A DNA stretch of 64,000 nucleotides from Clostridia bacterium (GTDB taxonomy: Bacteria > Bacillota > Clostridia > UMGS1883): NCBI GenBank assembly GCA_017411435.1, contig JAFQQD010000027.1, positions 2,926-66,925 of the forward strand, in the 5' to 3' direction. The position numbers and the translations under genes were made by a program. The notes under the pieces are model-generated. The model saw only the letters and a list, made by a program, of their open reading frames with translations, was not told the origin of the DNA and searched no databases. How positions within the stretch are numbered: the first letter of the stretch is position 1; the number at the start of each line of letters is the position of its first letter. Positions 10,504 to 24,786 of the stretch are shown in pieces.

Positions 10504-10863
10504 ATGAGGTATAGCAGACAGCGTGAAGCGCTTCTTGATTTACTTCGCTCGACAAAGTCCCATCCGGACGCAGAATGGTTGTATACCGGACTTCGTAAAG
10601 AATATCCCAATATATCGCTCGGTACAGTCTATCGTAATTTAAGGCAGCTGACTGAGGCGGGGGAAATAATTGAATTGTGTTATGGTAACATTTCACATTT
10701 TGACGGTGACATATCACCCCATTATCATATGAAATGTAATAACTGTAACCGAATTTACGATATACCGATATCAAGCGTTTCGATAAACCTCAGCGGTACA
10801 GACAACTTTGAAGTAGACACAATCAATCTCGTCATAAACGGTACTTGTCGGAATTGTCAGTAA
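10504..10863 (+). CDS. perR: Fur-family regulator, PerR-like
   Basis: [26 protein letters not shown] and C-terminal CxxC; upstream of rubrerythrin; ATG 10504 follows AAGGAGG. Confidence 0.85.
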
Positions 10864-10900: not shown

Positions 10901-11488
10901 ATGAAAAAATTTGTATGTTCAGTATGTGGTTATGTTCACGAGGGTACAAATCCTCCCGAGGCTTGTCCCGTATGTAAGGTTCCTGCTGAAAAGTTCAAGG
11001 AAATGCAGGAAGGCGCAGCTCTTGCAGCAGAGCATGAGTATGGCGTATATGCAAAGACAGTAAAAAACAACCCCGATATTTCAGAAGAAGATAAGAAGTA
11101 CATCTTCGAACAGTTGATGGCTAACTTCAACGGCGAATGTAGCGAAGTTGGTATGTACCTTTGCATGGCACGAATTGCTCATCGCGAAGGATATCCTGAA
11201 ATTGGTCTCTACTGGGAAAAGGCAGCTTATGAAGAAGCAGAACACGCTGCAAAGTTTGCAGAGCTTCTCGGCGAAGACCTTGAGCCCAACATGAAGGCTA
11301 CAACAAAAGACAACCTTAAGTGGAGAGTTGACTGTGAATATGGTGCAACTCAGGGTAAGTTTGACCTCGCTTCTTGTGCAAAGAAGAACGGCCTTGATGC
11401 AATCCATGATACAGTTCACGAAATGGCTCGCGACGAAGCTCGACACGGGAAGGCATTAGAAGGTTTGCTCAATAGGTTCTTCAAGTAA
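10901..11488 (+). CDS. rbr: Reverse rubrerythrin (N-terminal rubredoxin site plus di-iron domain); last codons element-derived
   Basis: CSVCGY...CPVC at N-terminus; EAEHA and EARHG di-iron motifs. Confidence 0.93.
11435..11451 (+). repeat. attL core region
   Basis: GAAGCTCGACACGGGAA; 15/17 match to 24161-24177. Confidence 0.85.
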
Positions 11489-11495
11489 GAAAAAT

Positions 11496-11523
11496 AAAGG
11501 GTTTGGAACACTCCAAACCCTTT
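11496..11523 (+). terminator. Element-supplied terminator for the reconstituted rbr
   Basis: AAAGGGTTTGGA-acac-TCCAAACCCTTT followed by T-rich sequence. Confidence 0.85.
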
Positions 11524-11628
11524 TGTTATGCCACTTTTCTTTAATTTTTACTGTTTAGTTCACGAAACTAAAATTGTTTACTGTTCTTGAGAATTCCAGT
11601 GTGTTTTTTAATGGTTTTTTATGAAAAA

Positions 11629-11699
11629 GTGGGCAGTTGGTGGGCAAAACCCACCAAAAAATCACTCTGCCCACCACAAAAAATGCCATTTGCCCACCA
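11629..11699. repeat. Putative integrase arm-type sites near attL
   Basis: GTGGGCAGTTGGTGGGCAAAA 11629-11649 (exact copy at 24080-24100); inverted TGCCCACCA at 11668 and 11691. Confidence 0.7.
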
Positions 11700-11707
11700 A
11701 AGTATTG

Positions 11708-12286
11708 TCAAGTATTACTGTTTATAAACCCTTTGACTTCACTTTTTGCTCTGTTGTTTTCCCTATCAACCTTTAATTCTTTTGAGATAGATATTCTCCC
11801 TATCACTTCTTGTATATCAAGTCTTTTTCTTTCTTCAAAACAATATTCTACTGCATACATAAAGTTTAAATCATAAAACTTGGAATAATACTTGGGGTTA
11901 ATAACAACATATTTATTTCTTCCAATCTTATAAAATGCTATCAAGTTTAGTCTTTCAAGCATATTTAATGTATTATATGTATGTACCACAGAATAACCCA
12001 TTTTTTCTGCAATTTCTTTTATTGAAAGTTTCAAAAGGTTTGTATCTGGTTCTATATGCTTGACATTGATATTTACAAGTAGAATAAAAAAGTTTGTGTA
12101 TTTTCTATCTACACCCAATTTGTTTACAAGAAAATCTAATGCAGTAATATGTATCTTCATAAACTTTCTTTTGTCTTTTTTCTTTTTCTCTGGAAGAACA
12201 ATAGTAGAATACCCTTTACTGTTAATGCTAAAAAGTTCTTTCCAGATTTCATTATGTTCAAGACCACTGATTTGTTTCATATACAC
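11708..12286 (-). CDS. RepL-like winged-helix replication/maintenance protein
   Basis: SIKEIAEKMGYS...TLNMLE HTH followed by G...YVVINP, as in Firmicute RepL-type proteins. Confidence 0.55.
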   Translation of the reverse strand: MYMKQISGLEHNEIWKELFSINSKGYSTIVLPEKKKKDKRKFMKIHITALDFLVNKLGVDRKYTNFFILLVNINVKHIEPDTNLLKLSIKEIAEKMGYSVVHTYNTLNMLERLNLIAFYKIGRNKYVVINPKYYSKFYDLNFMYAVEYCFEERKRLDIQEVIGRISISKELKVDRENNRAKSEVKGFINSNT

Positions 12287-12423
12287 CCCCTAACAAGAGA
12301 AAACTTAAACTGAACTTTATATAAACATAAAATACAGTTTATATTTAAAAATCTTTGAAATGCCCACTGTTGCTTAATTTGTGAGCATTTTTTAATTTTT
12401 GTTATTCTTACTCTTATTAGTAT

Positions 12424-12849
12424 TTATTCTATATCTGCTATGTCAACTAAATCATTTTTGAAAACAAAACAAATCTCTTTTAAATCTCTACACTCTGTTA
12501 TTACATACTCAATGTTGAGAACCCTAAAATAAGTTTGAAAAAAAGCAAAAACTTCTGGAAACCAATTCCTAATTTTTAAAATACCATTTGAAAAATAAAT
12601 GTCTGCATTGTCATACATACTACTTGCATACTCTGCAATGTATTCAACAAGTCTGTATTGATTCACTGCAATAAAACCTTTAATGTTTTCTACTACACCT
12701 TTTTGTAAAAGAGAAGAAACAACATAAGAAATATTTGGTTGAGTGCAACCTATACACTTTGACATTTCTTCTTGGTTAAAATGAAATTGTTTGTTGTTTA
12801 GTAGTGATAATGTTAAAATCTCACTGCTATTTATGAAAAATGCTCCCAT
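12424..12849 (-). CDS. Small winged-helix (MarR-like) DNA-binding protein
   Basis: NQEEMSKCIGCTQPNISYVVSSLLQKGVV; ATG at 12849 follows AAGGAGGTG. Confidence 0.6.
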   Translation of the reverse strand: MGAFFINSSEILTLSLLNNKQFHFNQEEMSKCIGCTQPNISYVVSSLLQKGVVENIKGFIAVNQYRLVEYIAEYASSMYDNADIYFSNGILKIRNWFPEVFAFFQTYFRVLNIEYVITECRDLKEICFVFKNDLVDIADIE

Positions 12850-12977
12850 TTTCCACCTCCTTAAAAATAATATAATTTTGAGTTTATACAAATATAAATC
12901 TCTTTATAATTGTTTTAACACCATTTTATATTACTGTCAAATTATAAAAATATTTATATTTTGGTAAAGGTTTTGAT

Positions 12978-13124
12978 GGACTGCTTAAAAGATACTTTGA
13001 AACAAAACTGGTAAAAAAATCACAAAACTAAATCTGGACCGGTTCTGTGTTAGATTTAATTTCTGCAAAAAATAACCAGTTTTCAAAATAGGGGTTCAAA
13101 GGTCTGTTAGATAGATATTTTGAA
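12978..13124 (+). repeat. 147-bp structured direct repeat, copy A
   Basis: 3 mismatches to 20267-20413; nested inverted arms AAACTGGT/ACCAGTTT and TAAATCT/AGATTTA. Confidence 0.92.
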
Positions 13125-13130
13125 ATAAAA

Positions 13131-13161
13131 AAACTACCAACTGAAAAACAGTTGATAGTTT
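13131..13161 (-). terminator. Intrinsic terminator
   Basis: AAACTACCAACTG-aaaaa-CAGTTGATAGTTT hairpin at the 3' end of 13166-13642. Confidence 0.65.
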
Positions 13162-13165
13162 GCTT

Positions 13166-13642
13166 TTAATCTTCTATTGGTCTTGGAGAAATATTAAAAA
13201 TCTCTTTCTTTTTTCTTCTGGCATAGGTAAAGGTTCTGTATGCTCCCCCATAGTGCCTTTCTATATAGCAAATAACATACTCACAGTTATCTACAACATA
13301 CTCATTTCCTTTTATGATTTGAAACTTCTGGGGAGTGTTCAAGGGTATATCTGCCATAAGAATATTATCATAATCTTTATAATACAGTTCCTTGTATTCA
13401 TTTATGCCTTTGGTTATGTATGGTATAACCAACTCTAATTTTATATCAGTATAAGTTTTCTGCAACTCTCTTATAACAGAAGAAGAACACCCATCAAATC
13501 TGCCATAATGCCCAACCCAGAACTCACTGACATTATGATTTAAAATCAAATCTTCTGCTATTGCTTTTATTTTTTCTCTTGTTTCTTCTGGGTAAGTAAT
13601 ATCACTATGCCCACAGAAACAACACCTTTTTATATTTTCCAT
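13166..13642 (-). CDS. SLOG-superfamily protein (DUF1273/YspA-like)
   Basis: CCFCGH N-terminus; F.VG.YG.FD, N.YVVD and GGAY.T..YA motifs. Confidence 0.7.
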   Translation of the reverse strand: MENIKRCCFCGHSDITYPEETREKIKAIAEDLILNHNVSEFWVGHYGRFDGCSSSVIRELQKTYTDIKLELVIPYITKGINEYKELYYKDYDNILMADIPLNTPQKFQIIKGNEYVVDNCEYVICYIERHYGGAYRTFTYARRKKKEIFNISPRPIED

Positions 13643-13770
13643 AATTACACCTTGCTAAAATACTAAAACTTCCTTGACACAGAAGTTTTATTTTATTATA
13701 CATAATAATCTTTTATTTGTAAATAGTTTATAATTATATATATAAAATAATTATGTAGATAGGTGTTTTT

Positions 13771-14019
13771 ATGAACTATTATAATGAAAAAGAATATCAA
13801 ATGTTTATAATAAAAGTTGGGTTAAAAGTTGGTTATTACAGAAGACTTGCAAATATGACACAAGAGCAGTTGAGTGAAAGCAGTGGTATGTCATTAAACT
13901 TTATTTCTCAATTAGAAGGTCCTTCTGCTCCTTATGTTCCTTCCCTAAAATCACTATTTAAAATAAGTAAAGTGTTAGGTGTTCCAATAAATAAATTAGT
14001 AGATGTAGATAATGATTAA
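13771..14019 (+). CDS. XRE-family HTH regulator
   Basis: YRRLANMTQEQLSE...ISQLE...PSLKSLFKISKVLGV. Confidence 0.88.
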   Translation: MNYYNEKEYQMFIIKVGLKVGYYRRLANMTQEQLSESSGMSLNFISQLEGPSAPYVPSLKSLFKISKVLGVPINKLVDVDND

Positions 14020-14042
14020 AGACTGCCAATGAGCAGTCTTTT

Positions 14043-15044
14043 TTAACTATATAAATAAATCTGTTTCAGGTCCTTTCTTTCCCCACTATGAGATAAGTGC
14101 CTTTGAATAACCATACTTTCTGCTTTTTCTTTACTCCACCCTTTATCAAGATAATATTGTAGTGCAATCTGGCAGTGATATTTTCTAAATTGGTGGTTTT
14201 TCCCACTGACTTCTAACCCCAATTCTTTTGTGATTTTTCTTATTTCATTACTCATAATTTGCCTTGTTGCTTTTGTGTCCTTTGGTAAGTCAAAAAGTCT
14301 GTCAGTTGGGTTCTTGCCTTGTTTCAGTTCTTCAAAAAAACTTCTGTATTCTGGGAGTATAATTCTATAACTATCTTTGCCACCTTTACCTACAATATGA
14401 ACAGTAGAATAAGTGTCTATTCTTCCATCTTTGGTAGTGGTGGTATAGGTATGAGTGTCAAGGTTAATATCTTCTGCTTTTATATTTATGAGTTCAGAAA
14501 CTCTGCAACCTAAAAATGCCATTGTCTTAATCTCATTTTGTCTGTTCCCTTTGTAGTTGCATATCTGTATAATTTCAGTATTTGTGTAAGTTCTTGCAGA
14601 ATTAGTTTTATATGTATCTTCCACCTTGTGTGCCTTTACTTCTTGTGTATAAAACTGCTCACAACCAAACTTTTTGGAACAAGCAATAGAAACTTTTTCC
14701 AACATATTTTTGTATGCAGCAACAGTTTTTTTACTGCAACCTTGTTTTGTGTTCAAATATTCCAGACACATTTTTGGTGTGATTTCTTTAACCATTTTTA
14801 TGTTGTAGTTTTCTTTCAAGAACTTAACAAAGTTTTTGCTTTTCTCTGCCAAGCATTGTGCAGTTCTTTGAGAAAATACATAGTTAATGCTTGTCCCATT
14901 TTTCTTAAACTCCCTTTTGCCAACACTTGAAAAATGAGTGCCATTTTCTCTGTTGTAAATCTCTGTTCTTTTTTCTTGATTTTGCATATTTATTTCTGCA
15001 AGTGCAGTGTGTATTTGATAACCCAAAGACTTATTTTTGCCCAT
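14043..15044 (-). CDS. Second tyrosine recombinase (candidate recombinase-type relaxase)
   Basis: GCRVSEL (R), GKGGK (K), HQFR (HxxR), LSH and terminal Y; no recognisable arm-binding domain. Confidence 0.8.
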   Translation of the reverse strand: MGKNKSLGYQIHTALAEINMQNQEKRTEIYNRENGTHFSSVGKREFKKNGTSINYVFSQRTAQCLAEKSKNFVKFLKENYNIKMVKEITPKMCLEYLNTKQGCSKKTVAAYKNMLEKVSIACSKKFGCEQFYTQEVKAHKVEDTYKTNSARTYTNTEIIQICNYKGNRQNEIKTMAFLGCRVSELINIKAEDINLDTHTYTTTTKDGRIDTYSTVHIVGKGGKDSYRIILPEYRSFFEELKQGKNPTDRLFDLPKDTKATRQIMSNEIRKITKELGLEVSGKNHQFRKYHCQIALQYYLDKGWSKEKAESMVIQRHLSHSGERKDLKQIYLYS

Positions 15045-15073
15045 TTTGAAAATACCCCCTTTTTAATCTGTAT

Positions 15074-15609
15074 TCACTGAAAATGGCAACATTTTCAGTG
15101 ATTTTTCCATAAAAAATGATTTTACACATTTTTTATAATTTTTTTCCTATTAAATACATTTTATTCCTTTTTATTTCTTTTTTCTGGTGCAGTGCAAAAT
15201 TGTTTAGGTTTAAATCAACCTAACCAATTTTGCAACAAAGTTTGGTATAATAAAAACCGGTTTTTTATTATACCAAATATGTGCAAAAAAAATCTGCTAC
15301 AACCAATAGCAGATTTTATCTGTCTTTTGAAAAATCACTCTTTGACTTTTTATAAGTTTAGTATGGCAGTTGCCACAAAGAACTTTTAAAAAGTCCCAAA
15401 AATAATTTATGATAAACACCACAAGTGGTGGAAAGAAAAATTATTTTTCCCTTGTTTCCTTATCAAGAGAAAATGTCTTTTGTGGGAAAGACAAAGAGTG
15501 TAAGAGTGATTTTTTCCAAAAGTTGTGTATAAGTAAAAAGTTTTAATATTATATAGTCTATCTGTAAGTTAAAACTTTATTGTTGCGAGTGCAAGAGTTC
15601 TGCTCTTGC
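15074..15609. other. Non-coding cluster of inverted repeats (candidate oriT/origin)
   Basis: IRs at 15074-15101, 15193-15234, 15241-15277, 15289-15317 and 15591-15609, plus shorter ones; no credible ORF. Confidence 0.55.
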
Positions 15610-15702
15610 TTTTTCTTTTTAAGAAAGGTCTGTTGGGAGTGTATATAAATGAAACCATTTATATTATTGTAGATAAAAAGTAAATACCCTTTTTTACATA
15701 AG

Positions 15703-15733
15703 CAAAGGAGCAGATTTTTTGTCTGCTCCTTTT
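15703..15733 (-). terminator. Terminator of the Xre regulator gene
   Basis: AAAGGAGCAGA-7nt-TCTGCTCCTTT. Confidence 0.7.
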
Positions 15734-15740
15734 GTCATTT

Positions 15741-16793
15741 TTATTTTATATATGAAATCAGTAAATCAGTTAATTTAACTCTAAAACTTTCAATGTCTGT
15801 TTCTGTTGCAGAGAATAAAGGGGAGAAATCAACATTGATAGCATTAACAAACTTATCTTTTCCATTTGTGCAGTTGTCTATCAGTTTTAAAACACTTTCT
15901 GGCATATTGCCATTTTTTAAAGATTGCAGTTTGTTGTAAAAGTCCCTACTGCTTATAGGTGCTCCTTGACTGATAAAATTACTTTGAAAATTGTTGTCAG
16001 TGTAATTTTCAACAACCTTTGCAATTTTATCAAAAATGTTTTCATAACCATAACTTTCTAACTCATTGTAAATGTCTGCATAAATCTGGTCATAGTCTTT
16101 TCTTTGTCTTTCTTCCAGTTCCAGACAGACAAGCAGTGAAAACAAAGTGGAGTATCTTATCTTATTATTAGTAAGAATATCATTGACAATGCAGTTAATG
16201 TCCTTGTCAGTTAGTTCATATTTGATACACCAATAAGGGTAGTTGCCCAAGTCCTTGTATTTCTCTGTATCAAGACCAACATACACTTCATTTGCTACTT
16301 TTATACTTGTTTTCAGTTTTATGTGCTTGTTGCCATTAAGTTTTTGCAGTGCAACAGTCCAGGCAGTAAAAGTGTCAGTTTCTTCTATACTCCTTAATAT
16401 TCTTCTTTCAAGAGCATTACTCAAAGTAATATACTGATACTTCATATAATATGCCTTAACCCAGTCTTGATTTTGCAGATTTTCTATTTCTGCATTTGCC
16501 CCATACAAATATTTTTCCAAGTGCATAATCACAAATTGGTCTATGGGCATAGTTTCCCAACCCACCTTGTTTTTGTATATTTCAAAGAAATTATTAAGAG
16601 TGTCAGTTGTGATACTGTTGCTCCCAGTTGCCTTTTCAAGATTTTTATATGTGTTGAGTTTCATACCCAAAAGTTCTGCCATATCTTCTGCCATAAGATT
16701 TATGTCTTTTCTCATATCTTTAAGGTGCTTTTTCAGTTCTGGTGTCAAATCATACTTTACACCTTGTGTAATATTTCTGCTTTCAGTTCCCAT
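15741..16793 (-). CDS. Large XRE-HTH regulator (probable element repressor) with unknown C-terminal domain
   Basis: LKDMRKDINLMAEDMAELLGMKLNTYKNLE; divergent from xis-int. Confidence 0.72.
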   Translation of the reverse strand: MGTESRNITQGVKYDLTPELKKHLKDMRKDINLMAEDMAELLGMKLNTYKNLEKATGSNSITTDTLNNFFEIYKNKVGWETMPIDQFVIMHLEKYLYGANAEIENLQNQDWVKAYYMKYQYITLSNALERRILRSIEETDTFTAWTVALQKLNGNKHIKLKTSIKVANEVYVGLDTEKYKDLGNYPYWCIKYELTDKDINCIVNDILTNNKIRYSTLFSLLVCLELEERQRKDYDQIYADIYNELESYGYENIFDKIAKVVENYTDNNFQSNFISQGAPISSRDFYNKLQSLKNGNMPESVLKLIDNCTNGKDKFVNAINVDFSPLFSATETDIESFRVKLTDLLISYIK

Positions 16794-16827
16794 TTTGGTT
16801 GTCTCCTTTCCTTATTATATATTATAT

Positions 16828-16975
16828 ACTATACACCAAAAAATCTATTCTGTCAAGTCAAAAATACAAAAATAACACCCCAAGTGTTTTGGAATAAAAA
16901 ATATTTTAAAAATATTTCAAAAAACCATTGACACAATAATTTTTGTATGTTATAATATAAAACACTGAGGGTGTT
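16828..16975. promoter_or_regulatory. Divergent sigma-A promoters with two inverted 15-bp operators
   Basis: Plus strand: TTGACA 16928, 17 bp, TATAAT 16951. Minus strand: TTGACA (16856-16851), 17 bp, TATAGT. Operators AACACCCCAAGTGTT 16874-16888 and AACACTGAGGGTGTT 16961-16975 (13/15 as reverse complements). Confidence 0.8.
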
Positions 16976-17041
16976 AAAATGAAACATTGAAAACAAAATG
17001 TATTGTTTTAACATCATAATTTCAAAAAAGGGAGTGATTAA

Positions 17042-17254
17042 ATGACAACTTCAAGACTTGTGTTAAGTGTTTGTGAAGTAGCAAAGATATTAGGTGTCAA
17101 TAAGGGTTCAGTTTATGCCTTAATACATAGTGGAGCATTATCTGCTATAAAGTTTGGAACATACAAAGTTCCTTCTTTTGAAGTAGATAATTTTCTTCAC
17201 AAGTATTCTGGTTGTGATTTAACTGACCTTAATAATATAAAAACATTAAATTAA
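17042..17254 (+). CDS. xis: Excisionase (HTH_17/MerR-like)
   Basis: LSVCEVAKILGVNKGSVYALIHSGAL.A.KFG; directly upstream of int. Confidence 0.85.
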   Translation: MTTSRLVLSVCEVAKILGVNKGSVYALIHSGALSAIKFGTYKVPSFEVDNFLHKYSGCDLTDLNNIKTLN

Positions 17255-17271
17255 GAAAAGGAGTGTTGAAA

Positions 17272-18492
17272 ATGGCAGAAAAGATTTATGAAGGAACAAG
17301 ATTTAAGGGTGGTAGTTGGAGATACAGAATAAAAATGACACTGCCCAATGGTACAAAAATTAACAAAGAAAAAGCAGGTTTCAAAAGTTCTTATGAGGCA
17401 AGTCAAGCAAGAATTGAAGAGATTGGCAGAATAAAACTCACAAACTTTGTTGAGAAAAAGATAACTTTAAATGAAATGTATAGTCTTTACTTGAAAGAAA
17501 GTGCAACAAAGCAGAAGAGTTATAACACAGTGTTAAGGTATAATTCCATATACAAAAACCATATTGAAAATAGTCTTGGAGAAATGTATGTGGCAAGAAT
17601 ACAACCACTTGACATTACACATTTCTTAAATGAAAAGGCAGAGCAGTATAAGACTGACTACCCTTTGAGTATGTATAACTTTTTCTTGGTTCTCTTTGAT
17701 TTTGCAAGAAAGCATAAGTATATAAATGAAGATATTATGGCATTGGTTGAAAGACCAAGACCTTACACAAGACCAGAAAAGGTGTTGCTAACCCCAGAAG
17801 AGTTTAATGCTCTTGAAAAAAGGTTAATGTCAACAAATGTGCAAGTTGCTTTTACCATAGGAAAAAATAGTGGTTTAAGGGCAAGTGAAGTATATGGGTT
17901 AAGGTGGAGTGATTTTGACTTTGAAAACAACACTTTTGAAGTTAAAAGACAACTTCAAAAAAGGGAAATCAAAGAAGGTGGCAAAGTCTGGCATTTAGTT
18001 CCAGTGAAAACCACAAAAAGTGAAAGAACCATTTATTTTGGAGAAGAGTTTTCCCAGTATATGCAGTTTGTGAAGAAAATGCAAGAAGAAAACAGAAAAA
18101 GACTTGGTAAGTTCTATAAGAGCAACATAATAAATGCTGCAATGGACAAAAATCACCCAGAAATTGTGGAGATTTGGAATGTTGAAGATTTTGTCTGTGT
18201 AAAAGAAAATGGTGCAATGCTTTCTCCAGATAGCAACAAGGTTATTAGCAGAATTGCAAAAGAAATGGGTTTAAAGTTTAACTTCCATTTGTTAAGACAC
18301 TACTATGCAAGTGCCTTACAACAAAATGGTGTTGATATTACAGTTATTAGAGATTGTCTGGGACACTCTAATTTAAGAACCTTGCTTGAAGTCTATTCAC
18401 ATTGCAATGAAGAACAAAGAAGAAGTGCAGGAGCATTGATTGACAGTCTTATGGGTGCTAAAAATCTTATGCCAGAACCAGTGGCAGAGTAA
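17272..18492 (+). CDS. int: Tyrosine integrase with N-terminal arm-binding region
   Basis: GGSWRYRI...GF N-terminus; GLRASE, HLLRH, LGH and VYSH catalytic motifs; ATG 17272 after AAGGAG. Confidence 0.95.
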   Translation: MAEKIYEGTRFKGGSWRYRIKMTLPNGTKINKEKAGFKSSYEASQARIEEIGRIKLTNFVEKKITLNEMYSLYLKESATKQKSYNTVLRYNSIYKNHIENSLGEMYVARIQPLDITHFLNEKAEQYKTDYPLSMYNFFLVLFDFARKHKYINEDIMALVERPRPYTRPEKVLLTPEEFNALEKRLMSTNVQVAFTIGKNSGLRASEVYGLRWSDFDFENNTFEVKRQLQKREIKEGGKVWHLVPVKTTKSERTIYFGEEFSQYMQFVKKMQEENRKRLGKFYKSNIINAAMDKNHPEIVEIWNVEDFVCVKENGAMLSPDSNKVISRIAKEMGLKFNFHLLRHYYASALQQNGVDITVIRDCLGHSNLRTLLEVYSHCNEEQRRSAGALIDSLMGAKNLMPEPVAE

Positions 18493-18513
18493 AGGGTGGT
18501 ATTTCCACCCTTT
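18491..18513 (+). terminator. Hairpin after int
   Basis: AAAGGGTGG-tattt-CCACCCTTT. Confidence 0.6.
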
Positions 18514-18600
18514 ACCTTCTCAAGAGTTGATAATGAAGATACTGTAAATAGTGTTTTCTTTGTTATATATAGAACACAAAAATTAAAAAAATAATTAAAA

Positions 18601-18656
18601 AAGGAGGAGTAGCAGTCAATAGTGGTGTTCCTTTTGCAACTGCTACAAAAGAAAAT
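18601..18656 (+). repeat. SD-hairpin leader, variant 0
   Basis: AAGGAGGA-GTAGCAGT..22 nt..ACTGCTAC-AAAAGAAAAT-ATG. Confidence 0.6.
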
Positions 18657-19094
18657 ATGGAAGTAAAAAAAATCAAAGAATTAGCAAAAGAAAACTTTGA
18701 AAAAGGTTTTTGGGAAAGACATTTTAATTATGCCAGAACCAGTGAAGAAAACCAAAAATGTATGTTGGAAATCATTGAGAAAACTAAAAAAGTTTATGAT
18801 TTGGTTGAAAGTGAAAGTGTTTCATTTGAAGAAAAGTTGAATATGCTTTTTGAAATTGCAGAGAAAGTTTTTGAATATGATTTTGGAATCTGTTTGACAG
18901 AGTGGAAAAAGTATAGTGGCAATATAAATGAGTGTTTACATATAATTGAAATTGATAAAAATGCTCCATATCTAACCCAGTCAAAAAATAGTTTAACTGA
19001 TATTAAAAGCAAAACCTTGTATGGTGCAATAGTTTCCATAAATGTAGGTCTGCTAAAAGAAATATATTTTAATATGAAAGGAGAGTGGGAGTAA
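18657..19094 (+). CDS. Hypothetical protein (cassette 1)
   Basis: 145-aa ORF; its last codons and stop (KGEWE*) are encoded by the next leader repeat. Confidence 0.75.
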   Translation: MEVKKIKELAKENFEKGFWERHFNYARTSEENQKCMLEIIEKTKKVYDLVESESVSFEEKLNMLFEIAEKVFEYDFGICLTEWKKYSGNINECLHIIEIDKNAPYLTQSKNSLTDIKSKTLYGAIVSINVGLLKEIYFNMKGEWE

Positions 19095-19108
19095 ATCTCC
19101 CACAACAA
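19078..19108 (+). repeat. SD-hairpin leader 1
   Basis: AAGGAGA-GTGGGAG-taaat-CTCCCAC-AACAA. Confidence 0.85.
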
Positions 19109-19113
19109 GAAAA

Positions 19114-19374
19114 ATGACTGTTAGAACATTGAAAAAACATTATAAAAAGAACTTCCCAGAAGGACACTTTTTTGATAAAGAAACATTAGAATATTGGGGA
19201 GAGAGTATAAATGCTATGTCAATATCAAAAAACTTGGTTGATTTTAAAGGTCATAAGTGCTATGAATTAGTTGCTCTTCAAAAAAATGATTATCATAACT
19301 TGAATAGATATGTATGGTTTTATTTTGATTGTGAAACTTTTGCATATATTGATTGTAAGTTTAAAAAAGATTAA
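19114..19374 (+). CDS. Hypothetical protein (cassette 2)
   Basis: 86-aa ORF with GHFFDKETLEYWG; aromatic-rich. Confidence 0.75.
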   Translation: MTVRTLKKHYKKNFPEGHFFDKETLEYWGESINAMSISKNLVDFKGHKCYELVALQKNDYHNLNRYVWFYFDCETFAYIDCKFKKD

Positions 19375-19380
19375 AAGTGA

Positions 19381-19412
19381 AAGGAGAGTGGGGACACTGC
19401 TCCCCACAACAA
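19381..19412 (+). repeat. SD-hairpin leader 2
   Basis: AAGGAGA-GTGGGGA-cactgc-TCCCCAC-AACAA. Confidence 0.9.
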
Positions 19413-19419
19413 TTTTATT

Positions 19420-20205
19420 ATGACAAAGTTTGAAAATTATTTTAACAATAAAGACCTTGATAAGAAAACCATTGAAAAATATCTTAAAATCATAGAAAAC
19501 TTGTGTATAGAGTTTGAAGATATAGGTCTACACCCATATAATTATGTTAATGATATGCTATGTATAGCAGAATATTTTGGTGTGGAATTGTGCTACCCAC
19601 TTATCACAGGAGAGAAAGCAGAAAAAATTGTTTTTGAAAAATTAAAATCAAAAATAGAAAATATGGAATATGATTATAATTATGATAATGATACTGAAAC
19701 ACTTATTGACTGGAAAGAACTCAGTGATTTTGTTTATGATATACATAGAAATAGTGAAGATATATATTACTACTATTACAAAACAGATAGCAATTCAGTT
19801 ATGGGTGTTTCTCAACTGGGGGAAGTAGATATAAATAATATTAGAAAAAATCTTTTAGAAAAAATAATAGAGATTGTAGATAATGAACAAGGGAGAGTGG
19901 GGACACTGCTCCCCACAACAGAAAAAATGAAGTATAAAATGAATATAACAATTACCTATAATGACATTGAAACAACCATTGATTTAGATTGTAATTTTTT
20001 TATCATTAAAGAAAATGACTATGGCAACAAATATCATTTGTCAATTACAAACAAATTGGGTTTTAATGAGTGGGTTGATATTAGATATGACACAACCTTT
20101 GATATCAACAAAAAAGAAAAGTATCTTGTGGACTGGGCATATAATTATTGGACTGGTAAAAATGGTGCTTGGGGAATCAAGAGAATTAAAGTCATAAAAC
20201 TATAA
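19420..20205 (+). CDS. Hypothetical protein; in-frame fusion of cassettes 3 and 4 (internal start at 19927)
   Basis: 261-aa ORF that reads through leader 3 as GRVGTLLPTT; in-frame ATG at 19927. Confidence 0.7.
   Translation: MTKFENYFNNKDLDKKTIEKYLKIIENLCIEFEDIGLHPYNYVNDMLCIAEYFGVELCYPLITGEKAEKIVFEKLKSKIENMEYDYNYDNDTETLIDWKELSDFVYDIHRNSEDIYYYYYKTDSNSVMGVSQLGEVDINNIRKNLLEKIIEIVDNEQGRVGTLLPTTEKMKYKMNITITYNDIETTIDLDCNFFIIKENDYGNKYHLSITNKLGFNEWVDIRYDTTFDINKKEKYLVDWAYNYWTGKNGAWGIKRIKVIKL
19889..19920 (+). repeat. SD-hairpin leader 3 (inside ORF)
   Basis: AAGGGAGA-GTGGGGA-cactgc-TCCCCAC-AACA, essentially identical to leader 2. Confidence 0.9.
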
Positions 20206-20212
20206 ATGTATT

Positions 20213-20239
20213 AACCACCAACTATGGCAGTTGGTGGTT
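20213..20239 (+). terminator. Terminator of the cassette array
   Basis: AACCACCAACT-atggc-AGTTGGTGGTT followed by T-rich sequence. Confidence 0.8.
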
Positions 20240-20266
20240 TTCTTATACTCTGGAAAAGGGTTTAAG

Positions 20267-20413
20267 GGACTGTTTAAAAGATACTTTGAAACAGAACTGG
20301 TAAAAAAATCACAAAACTAAATCTGGACCAGTTCTGTGTTAGATTTAATTTCTGCAAAAAATAACCAGTTTTCAAAATAGGGGTTCAAAGGTCTGTTAGA
20401 TAGATATTTTGAA
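20267..20413 (+). repeat. 147-bp structured direct repeat, copy B
   Basis: Near-identical to 12978-13124. Confidence 0.92.
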
Positions 20414-20489
20414 TTATAAAAAAGGTGTTTATAAAGTTCTCTATAAATAAACAATTACAAAAAATAACATAATAAAGGGAGTGCTACAA

Positions 20490-20894
20490 ATGACACCAAC
20501 ATTAAAAGAACAGAAGAAAGAGTGCTTAACCAGATTGAAACTTTCTGGGTTATGCAATGAAGTTATTACAGACTTCAAAAATGGGCAGTTATACAAGACT
20601 GAACAACTGGGTATATTGTATTATATCAATGACAATGAAAAGGCAGTGGTTAAAGACTTTGAAGAAAAAAATAATGCTATGGTATATCATATATTACATA
20701 GTAATACAGAGTTTGGAGAATTACTTGCTTTACTCTATGTCAGTAAATACAAGGAAGAGTGGCAAACTGACAGAGAAGATTTAAAAGATAATATTGCTTT
20801 GTCTTATGTCTATAATGTTGATTGCCCAGATTTCAGTGAGTTTGGTTCTATTGGTTTTGCCCAGAGATTTGGGGGACTTGTGAGAACTGCATAA
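20490..20894 (+). CDS. Hypothetical protein (LYVSKYKEEW...DREDL...SEFGSIG...GGLVR)
   Basis: 134-aa ORF; ATG at 20490 after AAGGGAG; own terminator at about 20897-20943. Confidence 0.8.
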   Translation: MTPTLKEQKKECLTRLKLSGLCNEVITDFKNGQLYKTEQLGILYYINDNEKAVVKDFEEKNNAMVYHILHSNTEFGELLALLYVSKYKEEWQTDREDLKDNIALSYVYNVDCPDFSEFGSIGFAQRFGGLVRTA

Positions 20895-20973
20895 CCCCAC
20901 CACCACCAACCAATAAAAATTATGGTTGAGTGGTGGTTTTTTTTAACTTTTTTATGTTAATTCTGTGAAATTA

Positions 20974-21002
20974 TTGATTTTCCAACAGATATATGGTATA
21001 AT
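20974..21002 (+). promoter_or_regulatory. Sigma-A promoter of the MTase operon
   Basis: TTGATT, 17 bp, TGgTATAAT. Confidence 0.7.
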
Positions 21003-21039
21003 AAATACTAACTATACTTGCATATAGGAGAAGATAAAA

Positions 21040-22188
21040 ATGGCAGGGACAAAAGATTTACATAATGCAAAAAAAGAGAAAAAAGATGAGTTTTATACTC
21101 AACTTGAAGATATAGAACTTGAACTAAAACATTATAGAAATGACTTTAAAGGCAAGGTTATTTTTTGTAATTGTGATGACCCCTATGAAAGTAATTTCTT
21201 TAAATACTTTGCAATGAACTTTAATACTTTTGGACTTAAAAAGTTAATTGCTACTTGTTATGCTACTTCCCCAGTGGCAAACACACAACTTTCTTTGTTT
21301 GATATTTTAGATATGCCAGAAGAAACAGAAGAAGATAACAGAAAACCACATAAAATAGAGATTACAGAAGTTCTGGACTACAATGAAGATGGAGCAGTAG
21401 ATTTAGCAGATGTTGAGTTTCTTTTAAGAAGTAAAAAAAACACTCTTACACTTCTTAATGGAGATGGAGATTTTAGAAGTGAAGAGTGTATAGAACTTTT
21501 AAAACAAGCAGACATAGTTATAACAAACCCACCATTTTCTTTGTTTAGAGAATATGTTGCTCAACTAATTGAATATGACAAGAAGTTTATTATTATAGGA
21601 AATAAAAATGCTATCACTTATAAAGAAATATTTTCTTTAATACAAGAAGAGAAAATGTGGTTGGGTTATAGAAATATAAATGCAGATATGTGGTTTATAG
21701 TTCCAAAAGACTATGAGTGTGAAAAGGTTGTAAATGGTTTAAGAGTTAAGCATATTATGGGTTGTTGGTTCACAAATCTTGACACAACTAAAAGACACGA
21801 AGATTTATTGCTTTTCAAACCATATACCCCAGAAGAATACCCCAAATATGATAATTATGATGCCATAAATGTTGATAAAGTTAGTGATATTCCTTGTGAT
21901 TATGATGGTGTTATTGGAGTTCCTATAACATTTCTTGATAAATACAACCCTAACCAATTTGAAATACTTGGGTTGTCTCAAAAAGTTGGTATGGGGTTAG
22001 AAAGCAACAAGTTTTATGATGATTACAAGGAAGTAAGACAAGATGGCAGTTTTACTGGTAGTTCTGGCAAAAAAACAAATGGAAACCCAGTAATGAAAGG
22101 AAAACCAGAAAAAGGAAATTACTACACTAATGGAACTGATTTTGTATATTCTCTCTATGGAAGAATATTCATAAGGAAAAAAAGGTGA
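21040..22188 (+). CDS. Adenine-specific DNA methyltransferase, EcoRI family
   Basis: K.DEFYTQL, CNCDDP.ESNF, GDFRS.E, ITNPPFSLFREY and GVPITFLDKYNP.QFEI motifs. Confidence 0.92.
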   Translation: MAGTKDLHNAKKEKKDEFYTQLEDIELELKHYRNDFKGKVIFCNCDDPYESNFFKYFAMNFNTFGLKKLIATCYATSPVANTQLSLFDILDMPEETEEDNRKPHKIEITEVLDYNEDGAVDLADVEFLLRSKKNTLTLLNGDGDFRSEECIELLKQADIVITNPPFSLFREYVAQLIEYDKKFIIIGNKNAITYKEIFSLIQEEKMWLGYRNINADMWFIVPKDYECEKVVNGLRVKHIMGCWFTNLDTTKRHEDLLLFKPYTPEEYPKYDNYDAINVDKVSDIPCDYDGVIGVPITFLDKYNPNQFEILGLSQKVGMGLESNKFYDDYKEVRQDGSFTGSSGKKTNGNPVMKGKPEKGNYYTNGTDFVYSLYGRIFIRKKR

Positions 22189-22192
22189 GTTT

Positions 22193-23302
22193 ATGGAAAT
22201 AAGATTAGAAGAAAAAACAATTAGAGAAATCTATAATGGTTATCTTGATAGTGCAGAAAATGGAGTGGTTGCATTTGGTGGAAAATTAAATGTAAGACCA
22301 CCTTTCCAGAGAGAGTTTGTCTATTCTGGCAAACAGAGAGATGCAGTCATTGATACAATACAAAAAGACTTCCCATTAAATGTTATGTATTGGGTTGAAA
22401 ATGACAATGGTTATTATGAACTTCTTGATGGACAACAAAGAACCATAAGCATTTGTCAATATGTGGGTGGAGAATATTCCATAAACCACAGAGCATTTGG
22501 AAACTTGACTGAAACTGAAAAAGAGCAGATTTTGAATTATAAACTAATGATTTATATTTGTAAAGGTAATGACAAAGAGAAATTAGACTGGTTCAAAATC
22601 ATAAATATTGCAGGAGAAAAACTAACAGACCAAGAGTTGAGAAATGCCATTTATACTGGTGAGTGGTTGTCAAATGCAAAAGCATATTTTTCTAAAAATA
22701 ACTGCCCAGCATATCAAATAGCAAGTAAATATATGAGGGGAACACCCATAAGACAAGACTACCTTGAAACAGTCTTAAAATGGGTTTCTGCAAGAGATAA
22801 TATTGACTTGGAAGATTATATGGCAGAACACCAGAACACCACAAATGCAAGTGAATTATGGTTGTATTTCAACAGTGTTATTACTTGGGTAAAAACTATA
22901 TTCCCTAATTACAGAAAAGAAATGCAAGGCATTGAGTGGGGACTGCTCTATAACAAATATGGTAATGATAAACTTGACCCACAAGAACTTGAAAAAAGAA
23001 TAGTTGAGTTAATGCAAGATGATGACATAACAAAAAGAAGTGGCATATATGAATACTTATTAAGTGGAGAAGAAAAATACTTGAACATAAGAAGTTTCAC
23101 AGACACAATGAAAAGAAAAGTCTATGAGAAACAAAAAGGTATATGCCCACATTGTAAAGCAGAGAAGAAAGAGAAAATACACTGGGAGATTGAAGAAATG
23201 GAAGCAGACCACATTACACCTTGGTGTGAAGGAGGAAAAACAGAAATTGAAAATTGCCAAATGCTCTGCAAAGAACATAACAGAAGAAAATCAAGTAAAT
23301 AA
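22193..23302 (+). CDS. DUF262 (GmrS-like) plus C-terminal HNH endonuclease
   Basis: P.FQR, DGQQRT and F..IN motifs; CPHC...MEADHITPW.EGGKT...NCQMLC..HN.RK. Confidence 0.9.
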   Translation: MEIRLEEKTIREIYNGYLDSAENGVVAFGGKLNVRPPFQREFVYSGKQRDAVIDTIQKDFPLNVMYWVENDNGYYELLDGQQRTISICQYVGGEYSINHRAFGNLTETEKEQILNYKLMIYICKGNDKEKLDWFKIINIAGEKLTDQELRNAIYTGEWLSNAKAYFSKNNCPAYQIASKYMRGTPIRQDYLETVLKWVSARDNIDLEDYMAEHQNTTNASELWLYFNSVITWVKTIFPNYRKEMQGIEWGLLYNKYGNDKLDPQELEKRIVELMQDDDITKRSGIYEYLLSGEEKYLNIRSFTDTMKRKVYEKQKGICPHCKAEKKEKIHWEIEEMEADHITPWCEGGKTEIENCQMLCKEHNRRKSSK

Positions 23303-23312
23303 GGAAGAAAAT

Positions 23313-23939
23313 ATGCCAGATTTTTCAATTAAAGCAATAGTTTTAACAATAATTACAACAATAATTACAACTTTAATAGGAATAATAATTAAGGGTATTT
23401 CAATCAGTAAAATAAAAAAATGGTGGGAAGATACAAGAATATATAAGTATTTTAAAAGGTATCAATTTGTTAATGATATTGAAGACAATCAAAAGACCTT
23501 TAGCACCTTTATAACATTAAGCAAAAGTAATACAGACCAAACAAATACAGAATATCAAAAAGCAATGTTTTCCATACAAGACAAATTACATAAAACAGTA
23601 GTTAAAGAAAAGGAACTTTGGGGGAAAATCAAATCAAGTACAACATCTCCAAAGGAAAGAGAAATATTAAATGAATTATTGTCAATAAATAGTGGTGGTA
23701 ATACTGATAATATTTCAAAAAGTGAATTAAAAACTATTGGAGATAAAAGGTTGAAGTGTTGTAAGCAGTATATTAAAACACTAAAAAAATATCAACAAAC
23801 ACCAATAGAGAATTATCAAGTTGAAAAACTTGACTGCTTGAAAGATTATGTTAATGCAACAAAGTCTTATTATGAATTGTTGTATATCTATTTACCCATT
23901 GACAAAAGAAATATTATAGAAAAATCTTTTAATAAATAA
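23313..23939 (+). CDS. Hypothetical protein with N-terminal transmembrane helix
   Basis: IKAIVLTIITTIITTLIGIII; ATG 10 bp after the HNH gene stop. Confidence 0.7.
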   Translation: MPDFSIKAIVLTIITTIITTLIGIIIKGISISKIKKWWEDTRIYKYFKRYQFVNDIEDNQKTFSTFITLSKSNTDQTNTEYQKAMFSIQDKLHKTVVKEKELWGKIKSSTTSPKEREILNELLSINSGGNTDNISKSELKTIGDKRLKCCKQYIKTLKKYQQTPIENYQVEKLDCLKDYVNATKSYYELLYIYLPIDKRNIIEKSFNK

Positions 23940-23944
23940 AAAGA

Positions 23945-23973
23945 TTGCAATATCAAGCAGTATGTGGTATAAT
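23945..23973 (+). promoter_or_regulatory. Outward-facing sigma-A promoter pointing at attR and ftnA
   Basis: TTGCAA, 17 bp, TGgTATAAT; no credible ORF before attR. Confidence 0.65.
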
Positions 23974-24060
23974 AAAAATACATAATCACAGAATATAAAT
24001 ATACTGTGATAAACAGAAACAGACCTAAAACCTTTGGTTTTATGCCCTTATTCTTTGAAA

Positions 24061-24100
24061 TGGTGGGCACAAGAAAAAGGTGGGCAGTTGGTGGGCAAAA
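24061..24100. repeat. Putative integrase arm-type sites near attR
   Basis: TGGTGGGCA 24061; GTGGGCAGTTGGTGGGCAAAA 24080-24100. Confidence 0.7.
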
Positions 24101-24160
24101 TGAGATTGAAAATCACAGAACCCTTGATTTTACTGGGTTTCTGTGAGTAAGTCCCATTGT

Positions 24161-24211
24161 GAGGCTCGCCACGGGAAAGGCTTGGAAGGTCTTTTGAAGA
24201 GATATTTCTAA
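24161..24211 (+). pseudogene. attR with the displaced original 3' end of rubrerythrin
   Basis: Translates EARHGKGLEGLLKRYF*, versus [17 protein letters not shown] at 11435-11488. Confidence 0.9.
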
Positions 24212-24221
24212 TCAACAATTT

Positions 24222-24252
24222 AACAGGCGACCGCATAATCGGTCGCCTGTTT
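24222..24252 (+). terminator. Host hairpin between the original rbr end and ftnA
   Basis: AACAGGCGACC-gcataatc-GGTCGCCTGTT(TT). Confidence 0.65.
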
Positions 24253-24270: not shown

Positions 24271-24786
24271 ATGTTAAATTCAAAAGTGGCACAATTACTT
24301 AACGAGCAGATAACAAAAGAGTTGTACTCAGCATATCTTTATCTTGATTTTTCTGTCTTCTATGAAGCACAGGGTCTTGACGGCTATGCGAACTGGTACA
24401 TGATTCAGGCGCAGGAGGAAAGAGACCACGCTATGCTCTTTATGAAATATCTTCAGATGTGCGGAGAAAAGGTGTCTCTCGGTGCAATAGACAAGCCTGA
24501 TAAAGTACTCAATACTCTTATGGACCCACTAGTGGCAGGTCTTGAACATGAACAGTATGTTACAAGCCTTATTAACGATATCTACGCTGCCGCGTACGAT
24601 GTAAAAGATTTTAGAACAATGCAGTTCCTTGACTGGTTTGTAAAGGAACAGCTTGAAGAAGAAAAGAATGCAGATGATTTAATCAAGAAAATGGAGCTTT
24701 TTGGAGGAGATTCAAAGGGACTTTATTCTCTTGACGCGGAATACGCAGCAAGAATCTATACTGCACCTTCTCTTGTGCTTGACTGA
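24271..24786 (+). CDS. ftnA: Non-heme ferritin
   Basis: ELYSAYLYL, QAQEERDHA, EQYVT..I and FLDWFVKEQLEEE ferroxidase motifs. Confidence 0.95.
   Translation: MLNSKVAQLLNEQITKELYSAYLYLDFSVFYEAQGLDGYANWYMIQAQEERDHAMLFMKYLQMCGEKVSLGAIDKPDKVLNTLMDPLVAGLEHEQYVTSLINDIYAAAYDVKDFRTMQFLDWFVKEQLEEEKNADDLIKKMELFGGDSKGLYSLDAEYAARIYTAPSLVLD

Follow-up and report, generated by a model that had tools for sequence, protein, structure and literature searches.

Genomic islands at tRNA and tmRNA genes cross over inside the gene and restore its 3′ part with their own DNA, and such hotspots are reused by unrelated integrases, which leads to pile-ups of elements. Integrases of the Tn916/Tn1549 family tolerate heterology in the crossover region. 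Among elements in protein-coding genes, e14 at icd of Escherichia coli leaves a 163-bp icd′ fragment stranded at the far junction (PMC6379469). Integrative mobilizable elements (IMEs) and elements of the ICESt1 type combine a tyrosine integrase with a recombination directionality factor, insert at the 3′ ends of housekeeping genes and are flanked by a direct repeat that contains the gene end; integration into an attachment (att) site that is already present gives rise to tandem arrays, and both decayed, att-flanked, integrase-less cis-mobilizable elements (CIMEs) and relaxase-less IMEs are described (PMC5704250). MTnPi IMEs carry two distantly related tyrosine recombinases in tandem and integrate with low specificity (PMC5704250). 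Here we analyze a 64,000-nt stretch of a Clostridia bacterium (positions 2,926 to 66,925 of contig JAFQQD010000027.1, assembly GCA_017411435.1; hereafter the window), in which a 12.7-kb insert lies between about 11447 and 24170, within the last 18 codons of rbr, the rubrerythrin gene, which serves in peroxide defence. The insert has a GC content of 30%, compared with 38–42% in the flanks. We consider it probable, with good but not full confidence, that it is an integrative element that integrated at the EARHGK codons of rbr and supplied a substitute end for the gene.

Probable integration at the end of rubrerythrin

The rbr open reading frame (ORF) is uninterrupted, keeps its ExxH motif and encodes a rubredoxin-like N-terminal and a di-iron C-terminal domain (Pfam, PDB); relatives of the protein are named NADH peroxidase at NCBI. 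At the far end of the insert, an in-frame EARHGKGLEGLLKRYF with its stop codon stands at 24161–24211 within otherwise non-coding DNA. The sequence 5′ of it is not rbr and ends in AGTCCCATTGT, and it is followed by a hairpin and then by the ferritin gene ftn. The intact gene end at the left attachment site (attL) and the stranded copy at the right one (attR) read exactly as the original prediction, made from the letters alone, had given them. Its shared core of about 17 bp is roughly right in extent, with two mismatches inside: the two 18-nt EARHGK cores (11435–11452 and 24161–24178) are identical at 15 of 18 positions, and the sole exact run, CACGGGAA, is 8 bp long. In the 30 nt past the cores the copies are conserved as protein (7/10 residues) and diverged as DNA (19/30 nucleotides), and GGCT occurs in the stranded copy at 24163 and 24179, whereas the attL tail has none and reads aag gca tta; both points bear out what had been claimed. 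The stranded-tail layout, with the same preceding AGTCCYATTGT, recurs in at least ten other loci from other hosts and is hence not a chance arrangement. With an intact ORF and a displaced, probably native end at the far junction, the window presents a 3′-end-restoring arrangement of the e14/icd type.

A search with int409, the larger tyrosine integrase of the insert, gave about 15 close clusters among 5.8 billion proteins, and contigs were taken for the relatives at 67–84% identity (L numbers below denote the loci and contigs compared, P numbers the rubrerythrin proteins). Wherever the left end is visible, these relatives directly follow perR-rbr, at eight loci in at least five upstream contexts (the window, L090, L091, L092/93, L095, L099, L180 and L184), which agrees with the predicted integration inside rbr. 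The surrounding host genes differ: purL to VanW in the window; EF-P, Zip and a second Rbr in L090; a GGGtGRT-family gene in L091; HpcH and AraC in L092/93; and AddB and DUF896 in L099. The contigs of L095, L180 and L184 begin inside rbr. The family has a common backbone order of p190, p141, an optional SLOG gene, a helix-turn-helix (HTH) gene, int333, p350, xis, int and cargo, and in every family attR a conserved non-coding AGTCCYATTGT runs directly into GARGC..., with which the EARH codons begin. Given this shared backbone and conserved attR, the window insert is a coherent element and not a recent pile of three. On these sequence comparisons, integration into rbr by the int409 family is highly probable.

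We propose conservative recombination by a tyrosine recombinase between the attP site of the element and an attB site formed by the EARHGK codons of reverse rubrerythrin, with strand exchange in or next to the R-H codons at core positions ~9–12. The attP would contain an rbr-like core, a substitute tail of 11–12 codons with a stop, and its own terminator. After integration, attL would join the host rbr body to the element tail and element terminator, so that rbr stays intact, and attR would place the P arm (GTGGGCA sites and AGTCCCATTGT) in front of the native tail it had displaced, followed by the native terminator and ftn. The predicted attB is CACGAAATGGCTCGCGACGAAGCTCG[A/C]CACGGGAAAGGCTTGGAAGGTCTTTTGAAGAGATATTTCTAATCAACAATTTAACAGGCGACC and the predicted attP is GTGAGTAAGTCCCATTGTGAGGCTCG[C/A]CACGGGAAGGCATTAGAAGGTTTGCTCAATAGGTTCTTCAAGTAAGAAAAATAAAGGGTTTGG; a circle joint in which the P arm runs through GAGGCTCGCCACGGGAAAGGCTTGGAAGG... 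(the stranded-type tail) into the P′ arm would contradict the proposal. int409 is the likely integrase at work, given its putative arm-binding domain, the adjacent xis-like gene and the repeats on both arms, and the element may be mobile at present. The function of Rbr is presumably kept, as judged from the intact ORF and ExxH motif.

Origin of the two tails

Two models of the junctions were compared. Either the crossover lies in the EARHGK codons and the attL tail comes from the element, or the exchange took place where the tail ends, which would make the stranded copy a mimic carried by the element. In five elements whose integrase protein is the same, the P arms are ~100% identical up to ATTGT-GAGGCAAG, and past GAGGCAAG the member in another flank, L097, differs at 10/46 positions. 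Likewise, L007 and L099 share 92 consecutive identical nucleotides (81 of the P arm plus core positions 1–11), followed by 11/40 mismatches past core position 11 and by flanks that cannot be aligned. Since these two independent pairs diverge after core position ~9–12, attR to the right of there should be chromosomal or resident DNA; and since the exchange is reciprocal, attL to the right of that point should come from the element. We infer that the boundary between element and chromosome falls within the R-H codons of EARH, and the cleavage positions would lie there as well.

The rubrerythrin proteins nearest to that of the window by gene body (95–98% over residues 1–178) all have G[KR]GLEGLL[KN]RYF tails, and P0178 and P0172 have the exact stranded tail GKGLEGLLKRYF on near gene bodies. 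The attL-type tail of the window was found elsewhere only in P0160, on a 92.7%-identical body that ranks 17th of 129. L184 is a similar case, with an odd attL tail, KAFQGFLDRMFK, a nearest body that has GKGLEGLLKRYF, and GRGLEGLLKRYF with its stop stranded at attR. Two element-free relatives, L015 and L009, have a contiguous perR-rbr-(bfd)-ftn with tails GKGLEGLLKRYF[K/C] and a stop. The terminator hairpin (70%) and ftn (79%) of L015 align with the attR side of the window, whereas the sequence past the attL stop does not, and the native tail of L009 matches the stranded copy at 26/30 nt versus 22/30 for the attL tail. The comparison with element-free relatives suggested in the original prediction therefore gave the contiguous rbr-ftn arrangement at genus level and yielded no same-species empty site. 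In addition, the attL tail is free of the words purged from the element and the stranded tail has GGCT. The P-arm pairs, the tails of the nearest bodies, the L015 and L009 empty sites, the L015 terminator and the word content all favor the predicted direction, and we regard it as fairly probable that in this window the attL tail, that is, the last ~12 codons of rbr, is element-borne and the stranded tail native.

Three further sequences were considered as references for the empty site. The contigs of P0012 and P0017, which have the exact stranded tail, were rejected as they are from another species, have different synteny and lack ftn. P0009 (AFKGFLDRMF tail) was rejected as a native reference given that its own locus is occupied by another element type with GTGGGGTAA repeats, where the contig ends. 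L004 (positions 1–30) has an identical ferritin with a different 30 nt upstream (tttcgaaccccttagaaaagg...) that looks like one half of an rbr-type terminator; an alternative or an empty site could lie here, on a stretch too short to tell.

Several observations weigh against an element-borne attL tail. No same-species empty site was found by exact-protein look-ups of ftn, perR and rbr, which returned the window's own contig and short fragments only, or by an ftn-anchored metagenome scan, in which the best match was 91% identical and incomplete and rbr-ftn adjacency occurred in 1/80 loci. Nor was an attP-like junction found in any contig scanned. No block of 7 bp or more is identical between attL and attR across all loci, the longest left-end identity of L184 being GAAGC. 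Conservation of the P′ arm sets in only with the final one or two codons: TTC AAG TAA gaaaaataaaggg is common to the window and L184, and the tails before it differ strongly. L092 and L095, with the same integrase and arms 99–100% identical, have tails that differ at 6–8/30 positions, and their attR core and tail are almost identical despite different flanks. The attL tail of L099 has 2 CpG and host-type CGC/CTC codons, the element having 9 CpG in 13 kb, and that of L184 has GGAT and a junction GGCT, its attR tail being clean; the attL tail looks host-like in the relatives L099, L184 and L092. Lastly, P0160 has the attL-type tail of the window on another gene body.

These tail comparisons concern 30-nt AT-rich sequences that converge by codon usage, and most of the compared elements are not near-identical. 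Hence, we read them as a signal of tail turnover, which does not refute the crossover in the EARHGK codons. Treating the window, L184 and L099 as near-identical elements was rejected, given that their integrases are merely 67–84% identical. An all-pairs test of whether the tail tracks the body or the arm was set aside as it had just four informative, conflicting pairs and low power, and 27-nt tail identities across hosts were down-weighted as a sign of circulating tails because AT-rich codon usage makes tails converge.

The alternative that survives best is turnover of the tail itself, which we hold to be possible and nevertheless rather unlikely. Here the crossover lies in EARH and a tail of 10–12 codons is in addition swapped between element and host, so that tails circulate independently of gene body and element. 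The swap could use another exchange point, at the last Phe codon (possibly served by int333), or could result from heteroduplex or gene conversion in the tail. It would explain why the window and L099 are 90% identical in the body, 96% in the arm and 64% in the tail (~52% for the tail in the window versus L184), why odd tails are scattered on bodies whose neighbors have the standard tail, why clean and dirty word content is mixed on attL tails, and why the variable tail meets the conserved arm so sharply at TTC AAG TAA. Two conserved recombinases are present, and, within L092 as within L095, the first codon of the tail varies in step at attL and attR. However, known tyrosine integrases use one overlap of 6–8 bp for both integration and excision; the compared elements, save two pairs, are 67–84% identical in integrase, so that the divergence may be ordinary; and the samples are small, the sequences short and direct signs of exchange absent. 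Equally tentative is the idea that the last ~11 codons of Rbr are an exchangeable cassette whose tails move between elements and chromosomes. If true, much of the C-terminal diversity of rubrerythrin in gut Clostridia would be written by mobile elements under unusually strong anti-restriction selection.

It is improbable that the insert is a composite in which several rbr-targeting elements accumulated in tandem. Such a history would fit the four fossil rbr tails inside the insert, which lie in two 180-nt direct repeats on either side of the pair of recombinase genes, and it would also fit the true tandem array in L092/93 (three tails, two integrase types) and the L041-type arm remnants past attR in L094–96. 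However, the same backbone order is found in at least six hosts, with and without the 180-nt repeat, GTGGGCA arm sites stand at the outer ends only and all three segments are purged equally. The fossils lack the EARH core, so any accretion would be ancient and would date from before the family diverged. The repeats also prompted the idea of three elements recently joined in tandem, which was rejected because the backbone is conserved across hosts.

Least probable, and in our view quite unlikely, is the reversed assignment, with the crossover at the last Phe codon or the stop and the stranded copy as an rbr mimic in the P arm, so that the intact gene keeps its own tail and only its last residue is changed; it predicts an attP with GGCTTGGAAGGTC...TTTC joined to AAGTAAGAAAAATAAAGGG and an attB ending in ...AATAGGTTCTTCTAATCAACAATT. 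It would account for the L092 and L095 attL tails diverging like host DNA with a nearly identical attR core and tail up to flanks that differ right past the stop, for P′ arms common to the window, L184, L099 and L180 from the last codon onward only, and for the host-type attL tail of L099 and the dirty attL and clean attR tails of L184; but the pair tests behind this have low statistical power on such tails, two independent identical-P-arm pairs part from core position 9–12 in attR, purged words stand in the attR tails of the window, L099, L090, L092, L096 and L097, the odd attL tail of the window is absent from the nearest gene bodies, and a 50-nt in-frame mimic left of the crossover would have no evident function.

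Hotspot, word purge and element genes

Apart from the int409 family, other inserts are found at the same place, and the contigs compared indicate that the rbr end is a recurrent, multi-family insertion hotspot. In L041 the rbr tail is followed by five GTGGGCA repeats and an integrase 34% identical to int409, and an L041-type arm remnant lies past attR in L094–96. Integrase-less inserts between two tails occur in L007 (770 bp), L023 (870 bp) and L035 (220 bp). Seven of 76 species-representative contigs end within 300 nt past the rbr stop (L006, L012, L018, L033, L056, L058 and L069), and these contig breaks likely stem from polymorphic insertions. That the gene end holds at least three to four unrelated element types is a doubtful count, which we put forward only tentatively. 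A link between rubrerythrin and an att site is unreported in the searched literature; the original description of rbr as an unusual target holds in that respect, but the site is a common hotspot for several element types.

Individual loci illustrate the diversity of these inserts. L092/L093 (4408–17200) is a tandem array of an int409-type element of 7.26 kb, a second element, which encodes a resolvase and an integrase of 419 aa, and a third rbr tail, whose rbr homology begins 15 nt further upstream and which is followed by arm-like sequence and a DUF927 protein. L185 (10585–11051) has a different repeat family, GTGGGGTAA/TTACCCC, directly past rbr before the contig ends, and is probably another rbr-targeting element type. 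The mini-element of L007 (10590–11304) is att-flanked and CIME-like, with one small membrane-protein-like ORF and no integrase, and it shares 81 identical nt of P arm with the 13-kb element of L099. The L012 contig ends in an L041-type arm motif (AGATAC...AGATACGATT).

The element is set apart from its host by its word content. Between 11437 and 24163 (12,726 bp) there are no RGCY sites where 37–71 are expected, with 8–9 per kb in both flanks and a next longest RGCY-free gap in the window of 660 bp. For CpG (11453–24160), 5 are observed versus 287 expected, an observed-to-expected ratio (O/E) of 0.02 compared with 0.94–1.00 in the host flanks. GATC, CATG, CTAG and GGAT/ATCC are also entirely missing, and GTAC, GCWGC and CCWGG are few. 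The two att cores mark the limits of the purged tract. The RGCY avoidance noted earlier is thus complete from core to core, but it is one part of a far wider purge. The purge is family-wide, with CpG O/E of 0.02–0.16 in L090, L092, L095, L099, L180 and L184; the second element in L092 is unpurged (O/E 1.19). We found no relevant report of a comparable CpG or word purge in a bacterial mobile element in the searched literature. The near-total loss of CpG and of several 4-mers marks element-derived DNA of this family to the base and points to strong restriction pressure in these communities. Separately, ACGT is missing from the whole 64,000-nt window including the host flanks (83 expected from a Markov model) and has normal counts in related loci, which suggests an ACGT-specific restriction pressure on the window's host.

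The features of the locus are collected in Table 1, and several further element genes without assigned identity lie between those listed. In int409, the motifs GLRASE, HLLRH and GHS...VYSH of the catalytic domain (Phage_integrase, E=3e-21) align with integrase 3nkh; the putative arm-binding domain, PF14657, scores E=0.0011 and 18.9 bits, under the cutoff of 22.3, and appears in the precomputed annotation of several relatives. An xis-like gene stands next to the integrase in all family loci. Clusters of GTGGGCA occur at the two element ends only, which hold 7/13 of the occurrences in 64 kb, and an exact 21-nt repeat stands at 11629 and 24080 (none expected by chance); the GTGGGCA repeats are candidate arm-type sites. 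p350 may be the master repressor of the element; it has no match in plasmids.

The cargo is a restriction–modification pair, of which the methyltransferase (MTase) belongs to the EcoRI-methylase family (PADLOC MTase_II E=9e-121) and the restriction endonuclease (REase) is of the DUF262/HNH type (REase_II E=8e-136). The pair is also present in L099. L002, from another sample of the same study, has the same right arm as the window, and in its positions 1–840 (compared with 20894–23940 of the window) a 104-aa gene replaces the MTase, REase and p208 module between the same element ends; the cargo therefore varies. In the P arm, an extended −10 promoter-like site (TTGCAA-17-TG-TATAAT) at 23945–24020 points outward, toward attR and ftn, and an inverted repeat, ATCACAG...CTGTGAT, comes after it. 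Family P arms conserve both this inverted repeat and the TATGGTATAAT motif, and the latter is found before the L002 cargo gene as well.

The two direct 180-nt repeats, D1a and D1b, are 94% identical, lie 7,289 bp apart and flank both recombinase genes. In each copy there are two fossil rbr tails that lack the EARH core (GKGFDGLLKRYFETKLVKKSQN with its stop, and GFKGLLDRYFE...); L090 and L091 have this fossil pair in the first of the two places, and L184 has it in the second. The repeats may be left over from an ancient accretion event, or they may be a secondary site of recombination. The second recombinase, int333, is 83–92% conserved across the family versus 67–84% for int409, its R, K, HxxR, H and C-terminal Y motifs are invariant, and it has no match in the PDB.

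No relaxase, coupling protein or type IV secretion genes were found among the 18 largest element ORFs (≥70 aa; Pfam, PHROGs, NCBIfam and PADLOC). Likewise, virion, terminase and primase-replicase genes were not found in the element ORFs scanned, for which PHROGs gave integrase and regulator matches only. IMG/VR holds no relatives of the element, its sole match being a chance one inside an unrelated integrase gene. With no recognizable conjugation, replication or virion genes, the element therefore resembles a relaxase-less IME.

Table 1 Features of the rbr locus and its insert (window coordinates)
Feature	Position	Strand	Evidence or remark
perR/Fur-family regulator, host	10504–10863	+	Pfam FUR E=8e-24; called gene in L005; upstream of rbr
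rbr, reverse-type rubrerythrin, 195 aa	10901–11488	+	Pfam RUBY_RBDX and Rubrerythrin; PDB rubrerythrin matches
attL core GAAGCTCGACACGGGAAG, codons EARHGK	11435–11452	+	15/18 identical to attR core
Replacement tail, P′ side, probably element-borne	11453–11488	+	Without RGCY, CpG, GGAT; tail unlinked from gene-body lineage
Hairpin terminator, 12-bp stem, presumably element-supplied	11496–11523		Conserved at start of family P′ arms; directly after new stop
Candidate P′ arm-type repeats GTGGGCA at 11629(+), 11640(+), 11668(−), 11691(−)	11629–11697		Same clusters in L041, L090–L099, L180, L184
p192 and p155, small winged-helix-like proteins	11708–12891	−	Weak winged-HTH Pfam matches; family backbone, conserved gene order
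D1a, 180-nt repeat with two fossil rbr tails (GKGFDGLLKRYFE..., GFKGLLDRYFE...)	12954–13133	+	Same fossil pair, same place in L090, L091
SLOG/YpsA-like gene (−) and small HTH_3 regulator (+)	13166–14019		Profile matches
int333, second tyrosine recombinase	14043–15044	−	Pfam E=1.7e-7; PHROG integrase; family alignment
p350, N-terminal HTH, divergent from xis-int	15741–16793	−	PHROG 11187 E=2e-6; conserved in all family members
xis-like recombination directionality factor (HTH_17)	17042–17254	+	Pfam E=4e-10; directly upstream of int409
int409, tyrosine integrase (putative arm-binding, SAM_3, catalytic domains)	17263–18492	+	Pfam E=3e-21; R/HxxR/GHS..Y motifs align with 3nkh
D1b, second copy of 180-nt fossil-tail repeat	20243–20422	+	94% identical to D1a; same context in L184
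Cargo: Type II restriction–modification pair, MTase 21040–22188 and REase 22193–23302	21040–23302	+	Pfam; PADLOC
Candidate P arm-type repeats GTGGGCA, three copies	24063–24097	+	Motif scan
AGTCCCATTGT, non-coding P-arm end abutting core; candidate core-type binding site	24150–24160	+	AGTCCYATTGT in window, L007, L092–L099, L181, L184
attR core GAGGCTCGCCACGGGAAA	24161–24178	+	Sequence
Stranded, probably native rbr tail GLEGLLKRYF and stop	24179–24211	+	Natural tail of P0012, P0017, P0172, P0178 and others
Probable native rbr terminator hairpin	24224–24249	+	Orthologous to empty-site L015 hairpin; 70% alignment over 56 nt, hairpin conserved
Ferritin (ftn), host	24271–24786	+	Pfam E=2e-36; 79% DNA identity to L015 ftn

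Comparison with known systems

The C-terminal di-iron helix of reverse rubrerythrin would be a new protein-coding attachment site for tyrosine integrases, in hosts that are abundant and poorly studied, the gut and rumen Oscillospiraceae. Database Rbr proteins with odd C-termini may be host–element chimeras, and assemblies tend to break at this position. An integrase with a small attB that is conserved in many anaerobes could also serve genetic work in Clostridia.

The element resembles e14 and phage 21 at icd in that an element with a tyrosine integrase lies within the 3′ end of a housekeeping protein gene and brings a replacement end, so that the ORF is kept with conservative changes; as with e14, the displaced original end is left as a pseudo-fragment at the far junction. 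It differs in its target, rbr, and in the length replaced, about 12 codons compared with about 54 in icd. Unlike e14 and phage 21 it is no prophage: it has no recognized virion genes and was not found in IMG/VR, and int409 is at most 30% identical to annotated phage integrases. As at tRNA and tmRNA islands, the crossover would lie within the gene, the 3′ part is restored and the site is reused. Unlike those islands, the element occupies a protein-coding gene, where synonymous and conservative changes can accumulate in the restored part and leave the tail recoded.

The accretion described for IMEs and elements of the ICESt1 type has its counterparts in the L092/93 tandem array and in the integrase-less L007 mini-element with the same P arm. 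The window element itself carries int409, xis and int333 and hence falls outside the definition of a CIME (att-flanked and integrase-less). Unlike the IMEs and the elements of the ICESt1 type, no relaxase, oriT or helper was identified for it, and its att repeats are imperfect with no common exact overlap; rubrerythrin has no occurrence in the IME review (PMC5704250). The heterology tolerance of Tn916/Tn1549 integrases would fit this lack of an exact common overlap, with membership of int409 in that family weakly matched only (Tn1549 Int, 6emy, E=3e-7); unlike Tn916 and Tn1549, the rbr element family is strictly site-specific for rbr. With MTnPi it shares two distantly related tyrosine recombinases in one small integrative element, but here 2 kb separates their genes, which lie on opposite strands, and integration is site-specific. 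Overall, the mechanism is familiar from known systems, and what appears to be new is rbr as its target, which is unreported in the searched literature.

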